NCBI GenBank assembly: GCA_000091205.1
Contig: AP006501.2
From: Cyanidioschyzon merolae
Lineage: Eukaryota
Reading direction: 5' to 3' (one strand)
DNA: 64,000 nt
The notes below the pieces were generated by a model. That model was not told the DNA's origin, did no database searches, and was given only the letters and a program-made list of their open reading frames with translations. Below, in pieces: positions 3,359 to 60,773 of this stretch (position 1 is the first letter of the stretch; each line of letters opens with the position of its first letter). The position numbers and the translations under genes were made by a program.

Positions 3359-6126
3359 GTGCGAAACGATAGATCAATGGAATTCGTTGTCCATGAAAAG
3401 TACGCTGTCGTGCGTGCGGGGTATACGGCGGCGCTGGAGCGTCGTATGATGCGACACGGTCAACTCGATAGGCAGCATCATTGGGCCGCTTCTCTGGCCG
3501 CTTTACGGAAGCTTTGCTCATGACGCATCGTTTTCGTATGAATGGTGAAAGGAATATGCGGTTATTTCCTTACGATGACGACTCGAGATTTTCAATGAGT
3601 CCACAATCGTGCATGAAAGAATGTCATGTTGGTGCTGGAATGGAGGCTATGACCGGTGCTGTCGGCGTATCGCGGGTTGATAGACTTGGGAATCCGCAAG
3701 AACACCACCGCTGCTGCACAGGGATATTCAGAATGAATGAGATGTAGATGATGGAGGATGTGCTTGTCTCCATGCAGTCATGCATGCGAATTTCATGCGT
3801 GACATGGGAAACAAGGCACGCTTTACTCGGCACGCTCCTGATACCAAGCACATATTTCAGCGCCTCTTCTGGGATACACTGCATGATGAGGACTTGAACC
3901 TTGAGGGATTCCCTTTACCAGCTCGCAGTGAGTCTACATGCAGTTTCGTAGAGCAATCGAATCCGAAACATGACCCAGGGGCGTCTCCCACGTACCTGGA
4001 ATGCCCACGCCCCTGTATCCCATGCTCCATACCAAATTCAGTGTTCTTTCGTGAGCGCGTGCCTGAGACCCGATTATTCTGGTGAAACACGCGCGTTCTC
4101 AAGGGCATTGCACGGTCCATTGACCTTCGAACAATGCTGTCTGGGTCGAGCGACACACGCAGTCTCTAGTGGGGTACGATCTTCACTGCCACCCGAGTGT
4201 TATCCGAACAACGCGTTGGCATCCTCTCGTGCTTATAGTCTTGTGACTCAGTTTCGTTTCGACTCCGCTGCGGCGTACAGCAGGAGACCGAAAGCACGAT
4301 ACCATGTACTGTATAGATTTTAGAAGCATTGCCTGTAGGATATATTGTTTACAAAGCAGCAGAAGGAAGACTGCATTTTCGCTTCAGACAAGTCATACCA
4401 TACTACTCCGATGGTTGAGTAACACTGAAAGAGACATGTAGATGCGTTCCGAGCCAAAAACCGATATTCTCAAGGAATGGTTGCGGTCAATAGTAGAAAG
4501 CGACCCATCGATTACCTTACGTAAACCAAAAGCGACAGCAGTAGCCGCAAGGGGCGTCACTGTTTCTCACCAGCTTATTCTTGCGGTCCTGAAAACACCG
4601 GTATGCGGTCGCAAAAAAACAGCCTTGCTTCACGCATAGTCATCTCGCACCGATATCGAAGCTACGACAGCGTTTCTGGAAAGTCACAATCGGTATGAAG
4701 CACAAGGACGTCGGCTTGTCCTTTTCCAGCCGATGCGACGTCATTCGGACGAAACGGTCGGAGCGTAGAGGGGTATTCGGCGAGCAGGGACTCAGTAGTA
4801 CGTCCGTCCGAACTCGAAGAGAACTGGGATATCAGCATTTGTTCTAGCTGCAGTGGATGCATTTGGCGGCCTCGGTTTGGCTCGAAGATACAGAAACGGA
4901 AGTCGGGGATCCTCGCAAGCTCGGTGCCGCCTGGTGCTGGAGAAAGACGAAAAATCCTCTTCTTCCCGATCATTTAGCGAAGAAGAGCAAGTAACGAAGA
5001 AGAAACAGATGAGGGGAGATGATCGAGAAGAGGTTTTCGCTCGAAAGGACGGTAACGAGACCTTCATGGCACAGCGGGCGTGAATTCAAGGAATCTTGGC
5101 GTTAATGAGTTCAACCAGAGCCAATCAACGCAGCCATCAACATAAGACGATGTCTGGTGCTGCAGACAAGACCCACAGAGCTGACGAGAGCCAGTTTCGT
5201 GTGACAGCCTATCAGCCACGAAAGCTTCTAGGACAAACTAAAACCGATGGCAGACGGTCAGTTAAAAAATGGCTGGGAGGCGTCTGCGAGTGGATAGGTA
5301 TATTTCCCGTCCATGATCATAGGACATTTTGTGATTCTCTGATCGCATATCTTGACAGAGTAGTGCAATAGTCGGCTGGAGTGAGGCGGCTCCTTTTCGC
5401 TCGAGAACCTGCTATGTGCCGGGAGCCGGTTACACTTCAATGATGTAGACACATGCAGCCTGGTACGTTGGGCTGCTTTCTCGAGCCGCGAAATACCCAG
5501 GCACGTTCTGCTGCTTTCGAGCACTGGCGGCAGCGCGGAGAAGCAATCGACATCGCGAAACTGCATTGCGTAGCGGGCCCGAGATGCAAACTGGTCATCT
5601 TCATGGACGACGCTTGTGCGCGATCGGCTCGTCTTGGCATCGAGTCCGTTTACGGCAGACGCTCTTCCGCAGATTTCTGGTCTGGCCTTCATGGCGGGCG
5701 CGCGGTCAAGCCAGTGCTCTGCTTTCGTCTATCAGTGATGCTGCATGAGGCCTGAACGCAGTCACGATTTCGACGGAACTATTTTAATCGCTCAGATGGA
5801 GTCGTGTTCCACATCTCAACCGGGCAGTACATTTGCTTCATCTTGTCAGGTTTGAAACCAGATCACCAACGCGTCTGGTGAAACAGGTCACTAGAGCGTT
5901 CCCCAGCTGTCCCGGATGCAGGCTTGGCGCCACGTGAAAAGCATCCAGCACCAAAGGCTCTGCGATGAGCGGCAAGCACCTGATGATTGCGCATGTGGCT
6001 CGTGATTCCCATAGATACCGATCTGAGGCGTTCGTTGCCCCGCCGGTACGATGCCAGTCGTCAGTGCCGACCATCACATCTCCATGTACCTCGTTGGGGT
6101 CAGGATTCGCAATCTTTGGGATATGC

Positions 6127-48894: not shown

Positions 48895-50695
48895 GCCTCG
48901 CCGTCAGCTGGTGTGCGTAGCCGTTGCCGCTTAGGCCCCAACGGTTCGCCCGTGCGTTGTCCACAAAAGGTCCCCAGTCACCGCCGTTTCCAAGCTGGCC
49001 GTTCTGCCAACGATTTCGCTCTGTGCCGACATCATCCATCTTTGACGAAGGTGAAGCGATACTCCACGCTGCGCAATACAACTGCTCGCCCCGTCAGCCG
49101 CAACCTTCGGGAGACACGCACGCACACCCCCCCAACTGACGCCTACACACGCACGCTCGAACGGAATCGAGATCATCATGCGTGCCGGTGTGCGCAGCAG
49201 CAGCCGGCGCGCGATGCCTTGTCCGAATCACCCAGGCGTCAGCGACGCTTCCGCCTTCGCCGCCTGCTGATCAGCGCAAATGGCGCTTGGCAATGTGGCG
49301 AGGGGGCGGCAGCGGCGCTGTTTTTGCGCCCCTGTGCAGTAGCGCGCTCCTGCCTGGGCGCAACCGCTCAACGGATCGCGGTGTACGCCAGCGCGTGCAC
49401 GATGATACGGAGCGCGCTTCTCGCCTTTCAACTCAATGACGTTCCACATCAAGGTACGTGTCGTCAAATGCTTTTCGCAGTTTGCAGCAGGTGTGTTCGA
49501 AGTATGTTCAACTAAAGCAATAAAAATTCAAGTGGGGGTTATGGGCATGGTAGTTAGGGGTTTCGGAGAGCTCTCCATGCCACGTCCGATGAAAACAAAT
49601 CAAAAAAATTTTCTTCTTGCTGATCATCGGGCGAACGAAAGCAAGTGATGAAGAAGCAGAAGACGAGGAGATATGGGCGAGAAAAGGAGTTTGCCCGACG
49701 AGACAATGCCGAGGTTGTATTGATACAGAGGGCGTGAGTAAGAGGAATGCTTGCATTGTTGACTTCCGCCAGCGGCAATGTACGCGAGGAGCTTATGAAA
49801 CGAGAGTTCAATGCTGGTATCAGTATAAGATGAATTGTGTTGCTGGAGACGGAACCCGAGGCGCTGACGCGAGCCGCCTTTGTAAGGTAACCTCTCAGCG
49901 TCGAAGTGTGCCTGGATAAACTGTAGCGGATACCAGGCAGTCGGTCAAAAAAGGCTGGGAGGCGTCGAAAAGTGGGTGAATAGATATACCCCCATGGTCG
50001 TGACACATTGTTCGTTGTGCTCACCACGTATGTAGATGCTGGTGCGAGCACCGTATGCTATGGCAACAGGGTAATGCTTTCCTATGAGAACGGGCCCTGG
50101 GTCCTTTGGCTCCGATGCCGTCTCGTGCATGCCCGTATGCATCGCATCACGCTCGGCAGCGTGATCGACGAGCCCGTTTGGAGCATGTCACACGTGTGTC
50201 TCGGTGCGGTATAATTTCGGAACTCTCGAATCACCGGTAGAGTCTTTATTGTACTAGAGCTCGCTTTAGCGGCACGACAGACTCGAATGCGTGACGCGTT
50301 GGCGGCCGTCAGAGCGCCACTAAGGGCTGTGGTGGCTCGGCTATCTTGCCCCGGCACATGGACATATTATTCCGTTTCCCCATCATAATCACCAGAGCCG
50401 CATGTTCCATGTCCATCCATACTGCCTGCTCAGATTGCTGCTCAACCGACTACGCTTGTATGGCATACGCATTAGGCCATCGAAGCCAATAGGCGCTTGA
50501 GACTAGAACGCAACAGCTGCAGCCATGCATAGTTGCCTCCTCGTGCGGCTGGCGCCCGCTAATGTTTGCGTTTGCGCAGTCTCATACAAGCGCGGCCTTC
50601 GTCACGTCAACAAAATGAGTCTTATTCGGCACCAGGTGGCGTAGTCGAGCGGTCTCCATCTGAGCATGCGATCGCCACGCACACCTGCAACGACC

Positions 50696-52787: not shown

Positions 52788-52913
52788 CAAATCAAAAGCC
52801 CTTAGAGACCTCTTGTTAGGCACTTGGCAACGCCTTTTCGAACCAACAGTTAGTATCCGCAGCTCGGGGAACGTTCATGCACGCTGTGGGTCGGATATGA
52901 GCAACGAAATAGC

Positions 52914-52975
52914 GCTGCTTCTGCTGCGGGTGCTTCTGCTGCGGGTGCTTCTGCTGCGGGTGCTTCTGCTGCTCC
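52914..52975 (+). repeat. 15-bp microsatellite (ctgctgcgggtgctt) x ~4, just 3' of the ATP sulfurylase stop
   Basis: Perfect units at 52921, 52936 and 52951, with partial flanking units. Confidence 0.85.
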
Positions 52976-55325
52976 ATCGTAGCCTTGCTAAGCGTCTGTG
53001 CATATGCACTCAGGGGAAAAAATTCGGCTGGCAACGTGCTCCCTCAAACGTGAATCTGCCGTCCAGAGCTTTGCTGGTCGCCTAACAGCATTAGGCAAGA
53101 ATGTTGCTTTATTTGAGAGCATATCGATGGTGAGAACCCTCGACTCGACGATAGGCTCTTCAAGATGAGGTCGTCCAGCGCAACATAGCGCCATAGCGCG
53201 CACGCCAGCGTTCGTACCCGATCAGGAGTACCTCGAAAGGCCCTGGCGCTCCCCGAAAAGAATGACCGAATAACGCGTACTAGCGCTGGTTGGCCGTATC
53301 GATCGCACGGGAGTGAACCGTTTGCGTCGTAAGCCCCTGGTGCATCGCAGTCGCGAGCCTGACGGGCACAAGTCCCTTGCGAACACCGGTGGCAGATAGT
53401 CGAGGCACCAGCTCCGTCGACGAAGGCGCTAGCAGCGAAGCAGGACCAGGGGTTTCCTGGTTAAGTTCATCGGTTCTGGACCATGAAAAAGCAAAGCAGC
53501 AGGGTAAACTGGCTATCGCGGAATCCCGCCATACTTTACTCAGTGACGGCTAGGCTACCCAACGCAACATCTTTCGCCAAGACGCGGTCTCACAACGCGG
53601 TGCGCTCTGCAAGCACATCCTGCAGGTCTCGCTCCGAGTCCGTGCTTAGACTGTTATTGCACCCAAACTTTTCAGTGACTCTATCCTTAGGTGCTGAATT
53701 TACGGCAAGCATCCCCGTGACGCAGTGCGTTGCCCCCGACCGCGACACAGGCGCGGTGGCTGGCCAGTGAACAGTCAGCTAGTACCAAAACTTCGCTGAG
53801 TACTCGACATCACCCGCGTTAGAACGAAATGGTTCGGGTCGACTCGGCGAACTCACGTGTAAACAGTAGAATGTGCATTCCTTCCTACTGTCATCAACAC
53901 CAGGCCTTGCGTACGTTTTCTCGTATTGCTTTCTTTTCCTCTCTCTTTCATTCCCGTCTTTAGATACGCCCGTTGGCCCGTCTCTCAAGCTCTGTTGTCA
54001 GGAGTCATAGGATGTTCGTGACAGCTTCCAACTGCCATTTTCATAGCTTGTGGCTGTTGTCGATGCATTGCATGCCATGCTGTACATAGCCATCTATGCT
54101 TCACTTGCAATTTTTACCTTATTGCGGACAGTGTCGGTGCTTCCCTCGATGCGGTTACACTCGACAGCTTTCAGATGCACCGATATATCCACAAAATCAT
54201 CTGTTCTGATTACCGCCCTGTGCCGCATAAGCGTTTGCTTCAGCGCTCTCTTCATAGCCTTGATGGCTGCAGAAGTTTTTTTCAATACCCTCCTCCGTTC
54301 CCGCGCCCAATACCGTAGCGTTATATCACGAAAGCGTTCCGGGCGATCACTCGTCGAGTGTTCTGTTCGCTCTGCAGGCACACGTGCGTTGTTCCATTTG
54401 AGGAAGGATTTGTGGAACGCGATGTTGATCATGATGAAATAAGTACTGTATTGGAAATCCAGAGTGGAGATCAAGGTGAGTAACTTCGATCCGTCTATGC
54501 TCGCTTCTTGTAGAGTGCTGACGAACGCTTCACAGGAGGCAATCGCTCGGATGACTTGAGTCCGAACCCAAGACCATTCGCCATGCAAACATAAAAGACG
54601 TGTGCCTCCAGAGCATATCCGGTAGAAATTATCACGCTTCTGTCAAATAATGCTTCCACAATGGTCACAAGGAGAGGAGGATTTGTGTTTAGACCGGACT
54701 CGATAATTTGATGCGAAAGATTCAGTGCTCTTCCTGTATGACATTAAGAAGAAATCTTCAAGGAACGAGGAGCAGTCTTTTTCGCATCAATCCAGCGGCG
54801 CGAATTCCAGCGCCACGAATTGCCTCAGAAACATCGAGAACATGGCTAGAGTGTGATTTGAGCAAACTCCTCGTAATGAATGATGAAGCTTGGAGGCTTG
54901 TTCGTATCAGTTGGACGATCAAATCGGTTACACTACGAATCCTTGTTCAAATACATCGCGAGTTATTTGGATCCAGGTGGCGTAATGATGTCAACGGCAA
55001 AGAGTCAAAGAAGCGACGCCCAAAAGGTGACCCAGAATCCCCAAGCTACATATAAGTGCTATAGTCCGCATTGCAGCAAGTTGAATCTCGAGACTCTACA
55101 CCTAAAAAGAGTTCGGCAAATGTCGAAATGCAAGAGCAGATCGAGTACTTCAGTGTTCCATTTCGACCCGACACGGGTGTGGAATCCATCACGCACAGCG
55201 AATGCCGCAAACCTACTCCACGCTGCACATGTAGACCGCTACCACCAACCTCAGTACGAGGCCTACGTGCGCCCTCTTTCAACGGCATATCCATAATCCG
55301 CTCAGGACGGTTTCATCCGCGCTTT

Positions 55326-56912
55326 CTACACGGCCTGCTCGTTTATCTCACCAAGATGATCGATGCAACTGATTCGCAGCGTCGACGTTGGTTTCTGGAT
55401 GCGGCAACGTCGGCGTATGTCGTCCAGAGCGATCTGAAAATATTCCACCGGACGAGCGGAATCTAGAAACTCATCGTGATCGGCTACATCTCCGTCAACA
55501 TAGTACCCGATATGACCAATGCCATTTGGTGCAAATATGTGCACGAATCCATTGGCGTCTAGTGTTATGCGCGGTGAACGGCCCACTGCATGTAGTGGAT
55601 GACTCGGGCGTTCACTGGCGGAGGCGCCGTTAGTAACAGGTAGCATACGAGTGACCGAAGCGTGTGGTGCATTCGCAACCTGATAAGGAACACGCGCATC
55701 ATGCTCTAGTCGCTCGGGTGATGGTAGTGGTGATGCGGCTGGTTGCGCAGTGAACGAGGCCCAGTCCGGCTCTATCTGCTCTACAACAGCAAGTGCACCA
55801 ACAAAGTGCCGATGGAAATGCAAGCGGCAAGCAGCACTCCTATCCCAGTGCGGTTCGTGTGCCTCCCGCTCTGGATCTGGGTCTTGCACCGTGAAAAGAC
55901 GGTAGAAATAGTCAAAGCCGCGGGCCATGATACCACCACCGCGGCACGGATGCGGAAGCGACAGACAGTGACCCAGTTCATGCAGCATCGCGCCAATTGT
56001 TGTGGAGGCCAAGGCCCAGCGTTCACCGCGACCGGCGCTATCATCGAAGAAGTTAATTGAGTCTACGCGTCTCCGATCACTAAAGCGCTTTGGCACTTCT
56101 GAGAGCGTCTGTGGCCATGCGTACATACCACTGGAGCCAAAGAGCGCTAACGTGCCTCCACCAAGTGCTGTGTGTCCATACACACGGCCTGTGCTCGCAT
56201 CTTTTGACGTGAAAGACATGACAGCCACGTCGATACACTGCTGGCGGTTAGATATGTTCGAGAGCTCCTCAGCAATCATACCCCAGAGCGCGTCACCCGA
56301 AAGTGCATGCAGCTCGGCTCGTGTCCGCGACAGACGCCTTACATGAACAGGTACATCATAGGCGCAGTGAATCTCTTCGATATTCCCTGGCAACGGAGTC
56401 GCACACGCAGCGCTCATACGTTCAATGCAAAAGCTCAAATGACCGAGGCCTTGCTCATGAAGCAACTCTGCGGCAGCTGTTTGCATGAGTCGTAACGCTA
56501 ACGCGAAACGGCGCACGGCGCTCGCAAGCATACAGTCTTCGTCGGGCGGAGCTTGGAAACGCACCTCCACGGCGTCTCGCGGCACGACGTAGACTGCTCG
56601 GACTACATAGTCCCAGGGGACGTCCAGATAGTGAACGCGAAACTGCAGTTTCGCTGGCCCGCTCAGCGGACCCGCAGCGACAAGGTTTACCCCTGGTTGC
56701 AGCCAGACTAACGCTCGAAACCTACCATCGCAGTTGCGCACAGGCCAAGGCGTTCGTTGCTGTTCAGCAACCAAACTACCTGGTTGAGCATTTGCCAAGT
56801 AAACGACGACGCACGTGAGGTGCTCATTGAGCGGCACCTGACCGCATATCAGAAGCAACGGAAACGTTACAGCTTCGTCTGGTCGGAGGTTCTCAACCCG
56901 CCATCGCACCAT
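55326..56912 (-). CDS. Zinc metallopeptidase (HEXXH), putative peptidase family resembling yeast YIL108W
   Basis: True ATG at 56912, 528 aa. GAMLHELGHCLSLPHPCRGGGIMARGFDYFYR contains an HExxH zinc-binding motif with a downstream GL.H-type third-ligand context. Confidence 0.6.
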   Translation of the reverse strand: MVRWRVENLRPDEAVTFPLLLICGQVPLNEHLTCVVVYLANAQPGSLVAEQQRTPWPVRNCDGRFRALVWLQPGVNLVAAGPLSGPAKLQFRVHYLDVPWDYVVRAVYVVPRDAVEVRFQAPPDEDCMLASAVRRFALALRLMQTAAAELLHEQGLGHLSFCIERMSAACATPLPGNIEEIHCAYDVPVHVRRLSRTRAELHALSGDALWGMIAEELSNISNRQQCIDVAVMSFTSKDASTGRVYGHTALGGGTLALFGSSGMYAWPQTLSEVPKRFSDRRRVDSINFFDDSAGRGERWALASTTIGAMLHELGHCLSLPHPCRGGGIMARGFDYFYRLFTVQDPDPEREAHEPHWDRSAACRLHFHRHFVGALAVVEQIEPDWASFTAQPAASPLPSPERLEHDARVPYQVANAPHASVTRMLPVTNGASASERPSHPLHAVGRSPRITLDANGFVHIFAPNGIGHIGYYVDGDVADHDEFLDSARPVEYFQIALDDIRRRCRIQKPTSTLRISCIDHLGEINEQAV

Positions 56913-56920
56913 TCACGCCG

Positions 56921-56943
56921 TTCGAAAGTCGAACGACGCGAAC
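56921..56943 (-). other. Strong RNA hairpin in the 59-nt spacer between the Fanzor stop and the metallopeptidase ATG
   Basis: Minus-strand cgtcgttcga-CUU-tcgaacggcg forms a 10-bp stem (one G-U) with a 3-nt loop. Its core cgttcgaaagtcgaacg (plus 56919-56935) is a perfect 7-bp palindrome. No U-run follows it. Confidence 0.4.
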
Positions 56944-56971
56944 GGTGTACAGTAGTGGCGGCAACCGCGCC

Positions 56972-59185
56972 CTAGACGAAACGTATACAACTGACGTTCA
57001 GACGCCTTCCAGCCTTTTTGGACCGGCCACCCACTACTGCTTCCAACTTTTTCGCATATAGTTCGACTTTGAGGGGTTGCCTAACAACATTCTCTCGTGT
57101 CAACTCCGGAGGTCTCTTCTCCAGCACCGCGCATTTCCTTAGATTGATGGCGGCATTAAAATCTCGATTCACGAATTCCATCCGTTTCTTGCCATCACTG
57201 GCTGTATTCACTAATGCGAGTAATCCTCGCACTTTTGCCCTCCTTTCCATTTGCTCCCCCGTCAGCGGCCCATACTTTTTTATATCCTCAGGGCACCTCT
57301 GGCACTTTTCCATCTCGACCCTCTGAAGTGTACACCCCAGTTCAGGGTGTATATAGGACGTCCGGAACTCATCTATAGGTATCGTAACGAAACGCCGTGC
57401 ACACTCCTTGTATATTCTTGTCGTTGGAGCAGGCGTAGTTCCTTTTTGGGTCTTCCAACACCCTGCCCCATACGCTACGAAGAGCCTCTGACCTTCATCC
57501 TCCTTCAAGGCGCTCAACTGATTGGAAAAAATTCGCGAACGCCCGCTGCCTCCCACCGTATACATTCATACGCACTCGAATCCACCGAGGCTTGGTATAC
57601 TCCTCCCACAGCGCATCCCAATGAGCAACACGAACTTCCATCAATTTCAGAAAAGCCTGAAAGTCCGCATTCCGGCTCGTCACCTCACTCATAGCTTCCA
57701 GGCGATCCTTCATTCCTTCGTTCCATGTCTCAATTTTCTTCCTTGCATTCATTATACCGGATTCCCGATAATATCTTGCTCTCGAGAACCCCAAAGTTCG
57801 CATGTCTTTCTGACGTAAGCTACCGTCAATGACATCTTCCGCACGCTTGGGTGCTGCGATGGTAATGATATTCGTATTCCCAGGGTCCGCGCCAACGACA
57901 AAGTCGTTATCCTCTACCTGCTGCGTCGCTGGATCCTCCTTCTCCTTTTCTCCATGCTTCGTCACGGGCTCAGCCGAAGGCAGGACTGGACGATCTGTCT
58001 TGAACCGCCCATAGTGTACACACATGGCTACTCTATCGGATTCCATCATCCTCTTGAATACCTTTTGTTTACTCATTTTGAGACGTTTGAAATCTAAGAT
58101 ATCCTTCCAGTACGTCTCCCGGTTTTCGCCGGTGAAGTCCTCCCTGCTAGCATCAAACTCGGGATTGATATCCCTCATGATGCCGTTATGGACGCCGAAG
58201 TCGATACTCACAAAATGTGACTTGATGTTGCACAACGGAACGCCGTTGAAGCGCTTTCCCGTTAGGAAAGCCTTCCGTCTCTCCCACTCTTCATTTTTTT
58301 CCCCACTCAGCTTCATCTCTGCCTTGCGTTCGAGCTCTCGGTCCAGAAACACAAAATAGCGCAGGATGAGGCCATGATATCTTTCCTTACCGTTTTTCAA
58401 CTCTGATATCTTTTCTGCTAGATTCGCCAGCCCCAAGTCTGCGCGGCGCTCTTGAATAGCCGCACGGATTACAGAAGCTTCATTCGTGCTCTCGTTTGAC
58501 GCCTTCTTGTCGACGAATTCGATCTCATCTTCACGCTTGCGATCTTTCGTGATGCCGTCGATAATCGCCCATTTTCCATTGCGAGACAGACCCGGGTAGA
58601 GTGCAGCCACGCGCGTATCATGAAACGTTCGAGGTTCATGTTCAAATGGTTCTTCAGATTCGTGAGGTACTTCATAGCCCCATAGTCGTAAATATCCCGG
58701 TCACCCTTGTATCGAGTACCCTCGAAGCAGAATTTCGCGAAGTTTTCGTGGAGGACGTGCACCCGCTCATTTTCCCTCCATGTTTCCTCTGTACCAAGCA
58801 TCAGCTGACGAACAAAGGTCTTATCGAAAAACTCGTCCGGAATCTCGACCATTTCCACGTGCGTCACGTCGCGATACATCTCCCTCACCAAATGCATCAG
58901 TCCTGATGACGCCTTGACAATACTCTTGGAGTACGAATCGACACGGTTCCTAATGGCCTCTCGCAACTTTTGTTTGTGAGGATCCTTGTTATGTTTAAGA
59001 AGACAGGTTTTCACCACCATCTCGTCGTACTGTCTTCTTTCTCGCAGCCTTGGACGTGCGGCCTCCTGCCTTTGCTTCTTCTGCCCTTCCTGTTCTTCTT
59101 CGCCCCGCCATGTTTTTCGTGTTTCTCCACCAACCGGCGACACAGGGCCCCAGGATCCTCCGCTTCCACTTCCATAACTTTCCAT
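56972..59185 (-). CDS. Fanzor (eukaryotic TnpB-like RNA-guided RuvC endonuclease), interrupted: three ORF segments joined by a 46-nt intron and one unresolved frameshift/intron
   Basis: Segment A (59185 down to ~58700, starting [10 protein letters not shown]... at a true ATG) carries a basic stretch [17 protein letters not shown] (NLS-like). Segment B (~58700-57564) carries RuvC-I ...[19 protein letters not shown] (Asp codon at 57887..57885) and the TnpB/Fanzor bridge region ...[15 protein letters not shown]. Segment C (57517-56972) carries ...[20 protein letters not shown]..., RuvC-II ...[19 protein letters not shown]..., Cys-x-Cys spacing (EKCQRC), and RuvC-III ...[17 protein letters not shown] (RD.NAA.N, the TnpB hallmark). 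Total ~720 aa, consistent with Fanzor1-class length. Confidence 0.75.
57518..57563 (-). other. 46-nt spliceosomal mini-intron inside the Fanzor gene
   Basis: Minus-strand sequence: aat|GTATACGGTGGGAGGCAGCGGGCGTTCGCGAATTTTTTCCAATCAG|ttg. It has a GTATAC donor, a pyrimidine tract and a CAG acceptor. Removing it joins ...RVRMN exactly in frame to [21 protein letters not shown]..., which restores the expected TnpB/Fanzor domain order. Without splicing, a stop (57568..57566) separates the frames. Confidence 0.6.
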
Positions 59186-60335
59186 TTTTAATTTTTTATA
59201 ACGCTCTCTGAACGCTTCTGCTCCAAACAGCGAAAAATCACTTGAATACACTTGCTTGAGTGTTGAAACACAATTGAACTGAATAATATACGTTGCTACG
59301 ACTTTAATGAAAATAAAATTTGCCGGGTAGAACAACACGCTACAGATTAGGATTCCATTCCTCTTCAACGGCGACATGCGCGTCGTGTCTCGTGACCACC
59401 TGATCCGGAGGTGCGCGTACCGACCGCGCTATACAAACGAAGAGCAAAAATGAATCATTAAATAGCGACGAGGTAACAATGTCTTTCTTCCTCTACGAGA
59501 AACGTAAAAAGGATGAAAGTTTTTCGTATTGTGGAAAAGTTTACCTTACAGGCGGAGGGTCCTGCGAGCTGGACGATTCTGCTAGGCTGGTGCTCGGTGT
59601 GCCTCTAAAGTGGCGGATGCTGTAGCGAGACCTGCGCAGCTCGTCCGCAACGCAGTTTTTTGGGACTAGGGGCAACAAAGCCGCGTCTGGGCGTCGCCCT
59701 GTTGCGGTGGTCTCCTAGTATATCGTTTCGCGCTGCCGCAGAAAGTACGTCCGTCAGCGCAGCTTGCAGACTCTCAGAACTATTATGTACTCCGAGACGA
59801 TGCCAGGTGCACCACGCCTCGAGCCGACGCCCTCAGTAGTATGGCAAAGCCGTTCTGTCTCCGTGCAGCATCCGCACCAGCGGTAGGCGCTACATCTGGT
59901 GCTGACGCCAGGCACTTGCTGCACGATAGAATGTACGAGACAACCTGTATATCCTCGAGGAAGTATAAGAAATGAAGCTTGAAGGTAAGTGCATCATAGT
60001 GGACGCTTTCCCGAAAGCAAATATCCATCCCGCAATCTGGGATCCATGGTCAATATAAACGTCTTGTCATCGAAATATGCCTCCCGACTGGGGGACGCGT
60101 CAGCGTCGCAGCGCATCGCTGCTGGCGACCCGACGGCTGGACACGTTTCCTCTGCGTATCTGTGCCGCACGGCGCTGCAGTGCCTGGAGACTCCAAGAAG
60201 TGGGGTGTGCGTTTTGTTTGACGGATCGGTAGTGGTTGGGTGTGCTACAGTTCCACGAAGCAAACCGTTCTGCTTAGTTGTGTTCTCTCTAGAGTTCTTT
60301 CCGCGGAGGCCTGAGACTTAGCGAATTTATTTGTT

Positions 60336-60773
60336 ATGAGCAAGAAAGGCGGAGACGTCCCCGAGTACGTGTACGAGCCATACCAAGGTGACGGGTACGC
60401 ACCTCCTCCTCCGGCAGCGAACTCTAGTAGCGTGTATAGGTACCAGACAGGTACGAATGCTGTGCCGCCGCCGCCGCCTCCGACGCAGAACGGCGTCGCT
60501 TATGCTTACAGTCCTGCGGGGGCGCCGCCGCCACCGCCACCCCCAAACTTTTCTTATGCCTACAGCGAGGCCCTGCCGGACGGCACCTCCCGACACTATT
60601 ATTACGCCCAGCGGACCTACTCGAACGCGCATGGGCGGTATCAGAACACGAACTTTGACCAGAACGACCAGCTTGCGCGGGGGTGTCTCTACGCCTGCTG
60701 CGAAGGTATGGCGGCTGGTCTGTGTGCGGCGCTGACCTTCGAGTGTTGCCTCGGTTTGTGCGGTTTCTGGTAA
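60336..60773 (+). CDS. CYSTM (cysteine-rich transmembrane module) family protein
   Basis: True ATG at 60336. Pro/Tyr-rich N-terminus (PPPPPPTQNG, PPPPPPPNFSYAY) and a C-terminal Cys-rich hydrophobic module CLYACCEGMAAGLCAALTFECCLGLCGFW, typical of CYSTM proteins. 145 aa. Confidence 0.6.
   Translation: MSKKGGDVPEYVYEPYQGDGYAPPPPAANSSSVYRYQTGTNAVPPPPPPTQNGVAYAYSPAGAPPPPPPPNFSYAYSEALPDGTSRHYYYAQRTYSNAHGRYQNTNFDQNDQLARGCLYACCEGMAAGLCAALTFECCLGLCGFW

Follow-up and report, generated by a model that had tools for sequence, protein, structure and literature searches.

A CMe-1A-type Fanzor1 element inserted in front of a host metallopeptidase gene in Cyanidioschyzon merolae, with the start codon of the gene probably lying in the terminal stem of the element

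A stretch of 64,000 nucleotides of contig AP006501.2 of Cyanidioschyzon merolae (the window) raises the question of why the gene of a Fanzor protein ends just in front of a zinc metallopeptidase gene. Fanzors are known as programmable nucleases. The Fanzor stop codon (TAG, 56974-56972) and the peptidase ATG (56912-56910) are exactly 59 nt apart (56971-56913) and both are on the minus strand, so the open reading frame (ORF) coordinates agree with the spacing given in an earlier note on this sequence. An in-frame TGA (56915-56913) abuts the 5′ side of the ATG, and therefore the peptidase ORF has no earlier start. The earlier note had offered three readings: insertion of the Fanzor element upstream of a host gene, a peptidase that is the cargo of a larger element, or a correspondence between the first codons of the peptidase and the guide of an omega-RNA. 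The explanation that we consider probable as a whole is that a CMe-1A-type element, whose Fanzor is dead, was inserted next to a host peptidase gene, the ATG of which lies in the terminal stem of the element. The coordinates of the features are collected in Table 1.

The insertion was established by synteny, the comparison that had been proposed to decide between the readings. The order ATP-sulfurylase, peptidase and divergent small gene is kept in Cyanidiococcus yangmingshanensis (L005) and in a second Cyanidiales relative (L001/L002), and the orthologue of the neighbour gene adjoins the peptidase in L001/L002 (79% at the amino acid level) and in L005. From ATG to ATG in the divergent pair, L001 has only 687 nt and L005 1265 nt, where the window has 3423 nt, and no Fanzor similarity was found in L001-L005, even at E 10. 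Taking into account the shorter intergenic regions and the lack of Fanzor sequence in both relatives, the Fanzor sequence is an insertion into a head-to-head intergenic region, between the small conserved gene and the peptidase, and the first of the three readings holds. The remaining host DNA on the left side of the element is presumably the former divergent promoter region. Its alignment with the intergenic DNA of the relatives gave scores of 24 and 36, where the maxima of 200 shuffles were 35 and 38; the score with L005 was above the 95th percentile of the shuffles (31) but still inside their range, and no orthology is drawn from it.

The peptidase itself matches PF12044 (Pfam, YIL108W-like) with E 5.3e-68 and 230 bits (cut-off 27). 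Its HEXXH motif is HELGH (residues 311-315), which is invariant in the alignment. Its orthologues are P0003 of C. yangmingshanensis and P0002 of the second relative (67% identity). The protein XP_005538771.1/BAM82735.1 of C. merolae 10D is 100% identical to that of the window; exact look-ups with the peptidase and with P0155 gave no record, and the match to C. merolae 10D was reached by way of cluster members.

The sole argument for the peptidase being cargo of a larger Fanzor-bearing mobile element is that the two genes are adjacent and co-oriented in the window. Metagenome contigs were scanned for Fanzor copies, which gave 80 loci of 269 matches, with the ends mapped by comparison with the window. 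The peptidase was present only in L033, L036 and L039, to which the separately fetched L006 is added, and all four represent the window locus. None of the 75 other Fanzor 3′ ends (62 loci) with at least 2 kb downstream was followed by it. The count of copies that the earlier note had suggested thus finds the pair at one locus only, so the peptidase is not cargo. Moreover, the homology between copies stops at 56915-56905, and the peptidase keeps its syntenic neighbours in the Fanzor-free relatives. We leave the cargo reading next to no probability and regard the peptidase as an ordinary host gene.

The ends of the element were defined from more than 30 copies. The left end is located at about 60075 (junction ...TTT/CGATGACAAGACG..., the slash marking the boundary), up to which at least 13 copies share homology; other copies start at 59390-59438 or have the 5′ module inverted. 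The right end corresponds to the place where the homology between copies is lost, given above. The 645-bp 5′ module is present, absent or inverted depending on the copy, and none of its short ORFs had a Pfam match. Neither terminal inverted repeats (TIRs) nor target-site duplications (TSDs) were seen in the end alignments of the copies. A T-rich motif (..TTTTTTC) is common to the left flanks of all of them; upstream of C. merolae start codons in general such a motif was not seen, as judged from 19 genes of the window. A hairpin candidate at the left end (ATCCC..GGGAT) was found by eye only, and the termini given here are approximate. The element has no Y1 HUH transposase (TnpA), the Fanzor being its only long ORF; the copies encode no transposase, and none is known for CMe-1A.

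CMe-1A was described in C. merolae by Bao and Jurka in 2013, with about 150 copies reported (PMC3627910). The element of the window agrees with that description in its host, its length of about 3 kb, its single Fanzor1 ORF, the lack of TIRs and TSDs, and the many copies of about 80% identity, some of them intact; its 5′ module fits the TE-N2_CMe-like 5′ part of about 635 bp, which is also found separately. TE-N2_CMe has about 70 copies in the 10D genome. As judged from the published description, the element of the window fits the CMe-1A family. Unlike what is found here, the published description of CMe-1A makes no mention of a terminal stem-loop, of placement at gene 5′ ends or of the window locus (PMC3627910).

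Some additional observations concern the ends and the modules. The 5′ module was seen in both orientations relative to the Fanzor core and may be a separate element (TE-N2_CMe) inserting beside it. Copies of the family also adjoin one another, either with a right end followed 50 nt on by a left end or as head-to-head pairs (L031 ~3500-3700; L043 ~5575-5596; L049 ~1080-1137). In the window, an open frame of 89 amino acids (59994-60263, minus strand) crosses the left junction from the host flank into the element (..AAMRCDADASPSREA/YFDDKTF..), and boundaries at 60079 and 56905 would put an ATG at 60116 in frame with the peptidase, which may be a matter of chance.

A key aspect of the locus is the 59 nt which had been taken as a spacer between the two genes. 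These nucleotides are element sequence, since they are conserved after the stop in more than 30 other copies, where conservation reaches 59-67 nt past it. They begin with a first hairpin, whose inner pair is swapped between CG and GC among copies (12 versus 11 sequences), and the region ends in a terminal stem-loop, so that the ATG of the peptidase lies inside the 3′ arm of a perfect 19-bp stem. The core hairpin shows compensatory changes between copies (CGTTCGA/TCGAACG, CGTTTTTC/GAAAGACG, TCTA/TAGA and GTCCT/AGGAC). In each copy it is followed by a G/T-rich tail of 10-16 nt, whose pairing partner is a conserved segment immediately 5′ of the hairpin; for the window copy this pairing yields the perfect 19-bp stem. 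The 3′-end fold had a z-score of -3.8, and the right-end stem calculated as DNA gave -22.5 kcal/mol. An Rfam scan of 55000-60500 returned no match.

Considering that the global RNAalifold consensus was poor, with hairpin indels, each copy was folded separately and the tails were swapped with those of 30 other copies. The window's own tail added -16.6 kcal/mol, versus a mean of -6.4 for swapped tails and -3.2 for far flank, being the best of 31. Family-wide, the tails stabilised the fold more than the far flank did (-8.6 versus -5.0 kcal/mol, p 3e-4), and the sense strand folded better than the antisense strand (-19.2 versus -12.9, p 7e-6). This strand bias is the signature of G-U pairs, and selection therefore likely acts on the structure as RNA. 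ATGGTG[CT]G is found at the same offset in L013 and L008, the two nearest copies, with unrelated flanks beyond; at one position of the stem the window has C-G and L013 has G-U, so that both the tail and its partner in the 5′ arm differ. Meanwhile, homology to the orthologues of the peptidase begins only at TGG (56903), and the N-terminus reads MVR-W in the window versus MIEHNG-W and MFEQRG-W in the relatives. Because the own tail pairs best, L013 and L008 carry ATGGTG[CT]G at the same offset, and host homology starts only at TGG, we consider it probable that the start codon and the first two or three codons of the peptidase (M-V-R) are element sequence. Judged from its sequence, the 3′ end of the element resembles an omega-RNA scaffold, being conserved, structured and extended up to the right end.

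In the 2.4-kb contig L006, whose positions 1-212 correspond to window 57124-56913, 11 of 212 nt of the Fanzor 3′ end are changed versus only 7 of 1587 nt of the peptidase; the contrast points to a chimeric assembly or to gene conversion among Fanzor copies. A C-to-G change of L006 at 56940 disrupts one pair in the terminal stem.

It could also be that the ATG is native, the element ending at the hairpin (...AACGGCGT, 56915) and having been inserted 2-3 nt upstream of the original start. The likeness of the next 10 nt among copies would then describe a preference for target sites and not element sequence; the site before insertion would read ...ATGGTGCGATGG..., and the junction sequence ATGGTGCG would be derived from the host. 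Such a limit agrees with blastn homology, which stops at 56915 in 28 copies, and when the left flank ...CATATTTC is joined to GAATGGTGCGA, TGG comes after exactly 18 nt, which is the spacing of the orthologues. In addition, GTTTTCT stands directly before the ATG of L001, like the T-rich left flanks of the family, and CATATTT resembles the C ATG TTC of L005; this last likeness counts for little, given that every copy has a T-rich left flank. What decides us against a native ATG is that all 10 nt of GUGAAUGGUG find a partner in CACCGUUCGC, which lies inside the element (2 of the 10 pairs are G-U), together with the rank of the own tail among the 31 and the ATGGTG[CT]G of L013 and L008 beside unrelated flanks. 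We consider a native start codon quite unlikely.

The arrangement of the window was compared with that of the family at 30 independent right ends (L007-L086), with ORFs called by ourselves on the metagenome contigs. A same-strand ORF of at least 200 amino acids started within 200 nt of 19 of the 30 right ends, versus 11% of 703 random positions in the same loci (binomial probability ~1e-11). When ORFs were called at 120 amino acids or more, the nearest downstream gene was co-oriented in 22 cases and opposite in 7, and three more small co-oriented genes recognized by Pfam (eL43, SUMO and Tim10) raised the figure to 25/30 (one-sided binomial 1.6e-4). In those 22 calls the ATG lay 2-424 nt beyond the hairpin (median about 40). 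Examples of the right ends are L013 (~8261+39), L068 (~8178+41) and L041 (~1997+39). The ten downstream ORFs tested with Pfam were all housekeeping genes: ribosomal L37ae (eL43), SUMO, Tim10, glutaredoxin, polyprenyl synthase (GGPPS), FtsZ, M18 aminopeptidase, AhpC/TSA, RCC1 and phosphoglucomutase (PGM). Judging by their identity, it is very likely that several of these genes are essential to the host, from which we infer that the 3′ end of the element must carry promoter activity or otherwise permit expression.

On the other side, the nearest gene upstream of the long-form left ends was divergent in 10 of 11 cases, at 49-2013 nt, some of these "genes" being other Fanzor copies. Divergent genes upstream and co-oriented genes downstream mean that the long-form elements sit in head-to-head intergenic regions. 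The layout of the window, with a divergent gene, a short promoter region, the element and the host gene, is typical of the family, whose copies sit just 5′ of co-oriented host genes. No paper on a positional bias of CMe-1A was found in open-access text. The start codon in the terminal stem and the co-oriented placement of most copies at the head of genes go beyond the earlier note, which had missed the family-wide arrangement, the location of the spacer and the ATG within the terminal stem, and the frameshifts of the Fanzor described below.

With the ATG in the terminal stem, the whole 5′ untranslated region (UTR), the first two or three codons and any promoter of the peptidase would be element sequence, and the host sequence would resume at codon 4 (Trp). 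The 3′ end of the element could act as an outward promoter and 5′ UTR, or could allow read-through, and the insertion at the 5′ ends of genes would be specific for orientation. The subterminal hairpins, the lack of TIRs and TSDs and the T-rich left flank suggest a single-strand mechanism, IS200/IS605- or Helitron-like, which would be supplied in trans. A more extended proposal is that CMe-1A is a gene-start-targeting family, inserted always the same way round and no more than tens of nucleotides from host start codons, which takes over the host promoter for the Fanzor/omega-RNA transcript and provides its terminal stem-loop as the new promoter and 5′ UTR of the host gene, with guides matching host gene starts. 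Integration might then take place into single-stranded DNA at active promoters or 5′ R-loops, and in the window the region of the terminal stem-loop would supply even the start codon. This broader proposal we hold to be unlikely, without dismissing it.

Several points weigh against placing the start codon in the element and against the explanation built on it. Translation from an AUG held in a 19-bp stem would be difficult, except on transcripts that begin within the 5′ arm or beyond it. Over the whole family, own tails were not significantly better than swapped ones (p 0.30); the tail is a generic complement of the conserved arm, and the copy-specific covariation rests on few copies. Neither empty alleles nor nested insertions were found among the fetched loci, and the ancestral start region cannot be rebuilt, since the left and right flanks join in frame at several plausible boundaries. 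The contrast of 2 polymorphic sites in the peptidase versus 19 in the element may come from cross-talk between paralogous copies and not from selection, because the non-coding flanks also show 0 differences. Finally, the ORF calls behind the family statistics are our own and not those of an annotated genome.

In TnpB and Fanzor systems, what comes directly after the omega-RNA scaffold at the right end serves as the guide (PMC10432273). By analogy, an omega-RNA from the window copy would carry codons 3-9 of the peptidase as its guide, with the right end at 56907-56905. The geometry that the earlier note had foreseen is consequently kept; it is the generic layout of these systems and not a special regulatory link. 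For regulation to exist, the omega-RNA of the window copy together with Fanzor protein from intact copies would have to bind or cut the start of the peptidase and so control the gene. The position of the guide, the structured and conserved 3′ region and the existence of intact members of the family (P0099, 752 aa) are in line with it. In such systems, however, every guide corresponds to the flank, and its target is the empty site beside the target-adjacent motif (TAM) (PMC10432273); in the occupied locus, element sequence and not the T-rich left-flank motif precedes the match. The guide also has the same sense as the mRNA, so it cannot pair with it, and the local nuclease gene is dead. Regulation of this kind seems to us highly improbable.

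The state of the nuclease gene was deduced from its reading frames. The Fanzor was formerly described as a single ORF; its stop position was correct, and the coding sequence is spread over three overlapping frames (59377-58469, 58610-57495 and 57565-56972) separated by two frameshifts. The first is a -1 frameshift, a C being absent between 58611 and 58610, where all other copies read CGCGCCGTG; the second is a +1 frameshift, with an extra C at 57525/57524 after a T6 run. Both are private to the window locus against all other copies. Both recur in L033, L036 and L039, three independent assemblies of this locus from metagenomes (99.7-99.8% identity, 0 gaps), and are therefore real and not sequencing errors. 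The Fanzor copy of the window is dead, a pseudogene.

The repaired translation (~737 amino acids) had 44 homologues, nearly all from hot-spring metagenomes. The RuvC motifs GADPG (GADPGNTN), DEFRTS and NRDFNAAIN and the zinc-finger CQRC are legible in it, and they follow the pattern D-X(125-275)-[TS][TS]-X-X-Zn finger-X(5-50)-RD. The zinc finger is HCCC in the window copy, and its last Cys is absent in many copies. Pfam and PDB sequence/profile searches with the Fanzor protein gave no match. An AlphaFold model was obtained for the intact homologue P0099 (67% identical), with a predicted local distance difference test score (pLDDT) of 67.6. Foldseek aligned this model with SpuFz (9cez, 8gkh; E 1.6e-15), PpFz (1e-13), GtFz (2.6e-12) and TnpB (5e-3). 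By its modelled fold and its RuvC motifs, the protein of the element is predicted to be a Fanzor1. A unit of about 75 nt (25 amino acids; ..QKVQDNDLVVDA.KHEE..) just before RuvC-I is single in the window (57887-57961) and forms 2-4 tandem repeats elsewhere (P0099, P0105 and P0108).

Transposable elements that donate promoters, 5′ UTRs or start codons to adjacent host genes are known, as in the outward promoters of bacterial insertion sequences and the promoters of long terminal repeats, and targeting of gene 5′ ends is known for the P element and Tf1. The window resembles them in that the element abuts a co-oriented intact host gene and the family is biased to gene 5′ ends; it differs from promoter donors in the start codon inside a terminal hairpin, in the Fanzor carrier and in a promoter activity that is putative. 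With ISDra2, an IS200/IS605 element with TnpB, it shares the gene of a TnpB-type nuclease, a structured non-coding RNA region that overlaps the 3′ end of the ORF and reaches the right end, a hairpin near the right end with a candidate one at the left, the lack of TIRs and TSDs, an apparent short conserved left-flank motif and a predicted guide equal to the right flank; unlike ISDra2, it has a eukaryotic host, no TnpA (Y1) in the copies examined and a Fanzor1 fold with a long N-terminal region. SpuFz1 of Spizellomyces punctatus (8GKH, 9CEZ) is the best structural match of the family and has its omega-RNA at the 3′ end of the locus, as predicted here. The sequence identity is only about 16%, and the window family lacks the 33-bp TIRs and TA TSDs of the SpuFz1 element (PMC3627910). 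Helitron2 of Chlamydomonas (PMC3627910, PMC10530073) likewise carries Fanzor1 as a passenger, forms hairpins close to its ends and has non-autonomous copies, but shows short TSDs and asymmetric terminal inverted repeats, none of which was seen in the window family.

Table 1. Coordinates of the features described in the text (positions in the window).
Feature	Position	Strand	Description
Fanzor1 element, CMe-1A-type	~60075-56905	minus	~3.17 kb (3171 bp)
5′ module	60075..59430	minus	~645 bp, begins ...TTT/CGATGACAAGACGTTTATATTGACCATGGATCCCAGATTGCGGGATGG
Fanzor1 pseudogene	59184..56972	minus	~737 codons after repair
First post-stop hairpin	56971..56957	minus	GGCGCGGTTGCCGCC; conserved in copies
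Terminal stem-loop, 19 bp	56947..56907	minus	5′ arm 56947-56929, loop 56928-56926, 3′ arm 56925-56907
Peptidase gene	56912..55326	minus	528 aa, intact, PF12044 zinc metallopeptidase
Putative omega-RNA guide position	56904..56885	minus	first ~20 nt past right end, peptidase codons 3-9; by analogy
Host intergenic remnant	60335..60076		~260 nt from neighbour ATG to element left end
Divergent neighbour gene	60336..60773	plus	145-aa Pro-rich, Cys-rich protein; conserved left-hand neighbour in relatives
Long-form left ends near divergent genes	L015, L017, L026, L028, L030, L043, L044, L045, L065, window 60076-60335		

Other features of the window were also recorded. A Pfam search with the 145-aa protein of the neighbour gene gave no family. 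Three further Fanzor-like C-terminal relics, none of them intact, are located at 49726-49974, 5066-5267 and 39985-40584, all on the plus strand; they belong to a different and more distant family (30-52% amino acid identity to the window copy or P0137) and were of no help in defining the ends. Downstream of the ATP-sulfurylase gene, a short in-frame repeat (52816-53085) is visible in the translations of both strands (LLLRV three times, QQKHP three times).

As it was first noted, the finding is modest on its own: a transposon that is dead lies upstream of a host gene, which is nothing out of the ordinary. With the family placed at the head of co-oriented genes, some C. merolae genes may have 5′ UTRs or start codons derived from transposons, which concerns their annotation, and a Fanzor element may drive outward transcription from its right end. 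If gene-start targeting were true, the guide of each copy would correspond to the very beginning of a host gene, in many cases an essential gene, and a gene that lost the element would be left with a Fanzor target at its start. The approximately 150 reported copies (PMC3627910) constitute a natural data set in which, for copies placed like the 25 of 30, the guide would be the 5′ end of a known host gene, and which could be used to infer the TAM and the guide and to study the manner of, and the reason for, the placement of these elements at gene starts.

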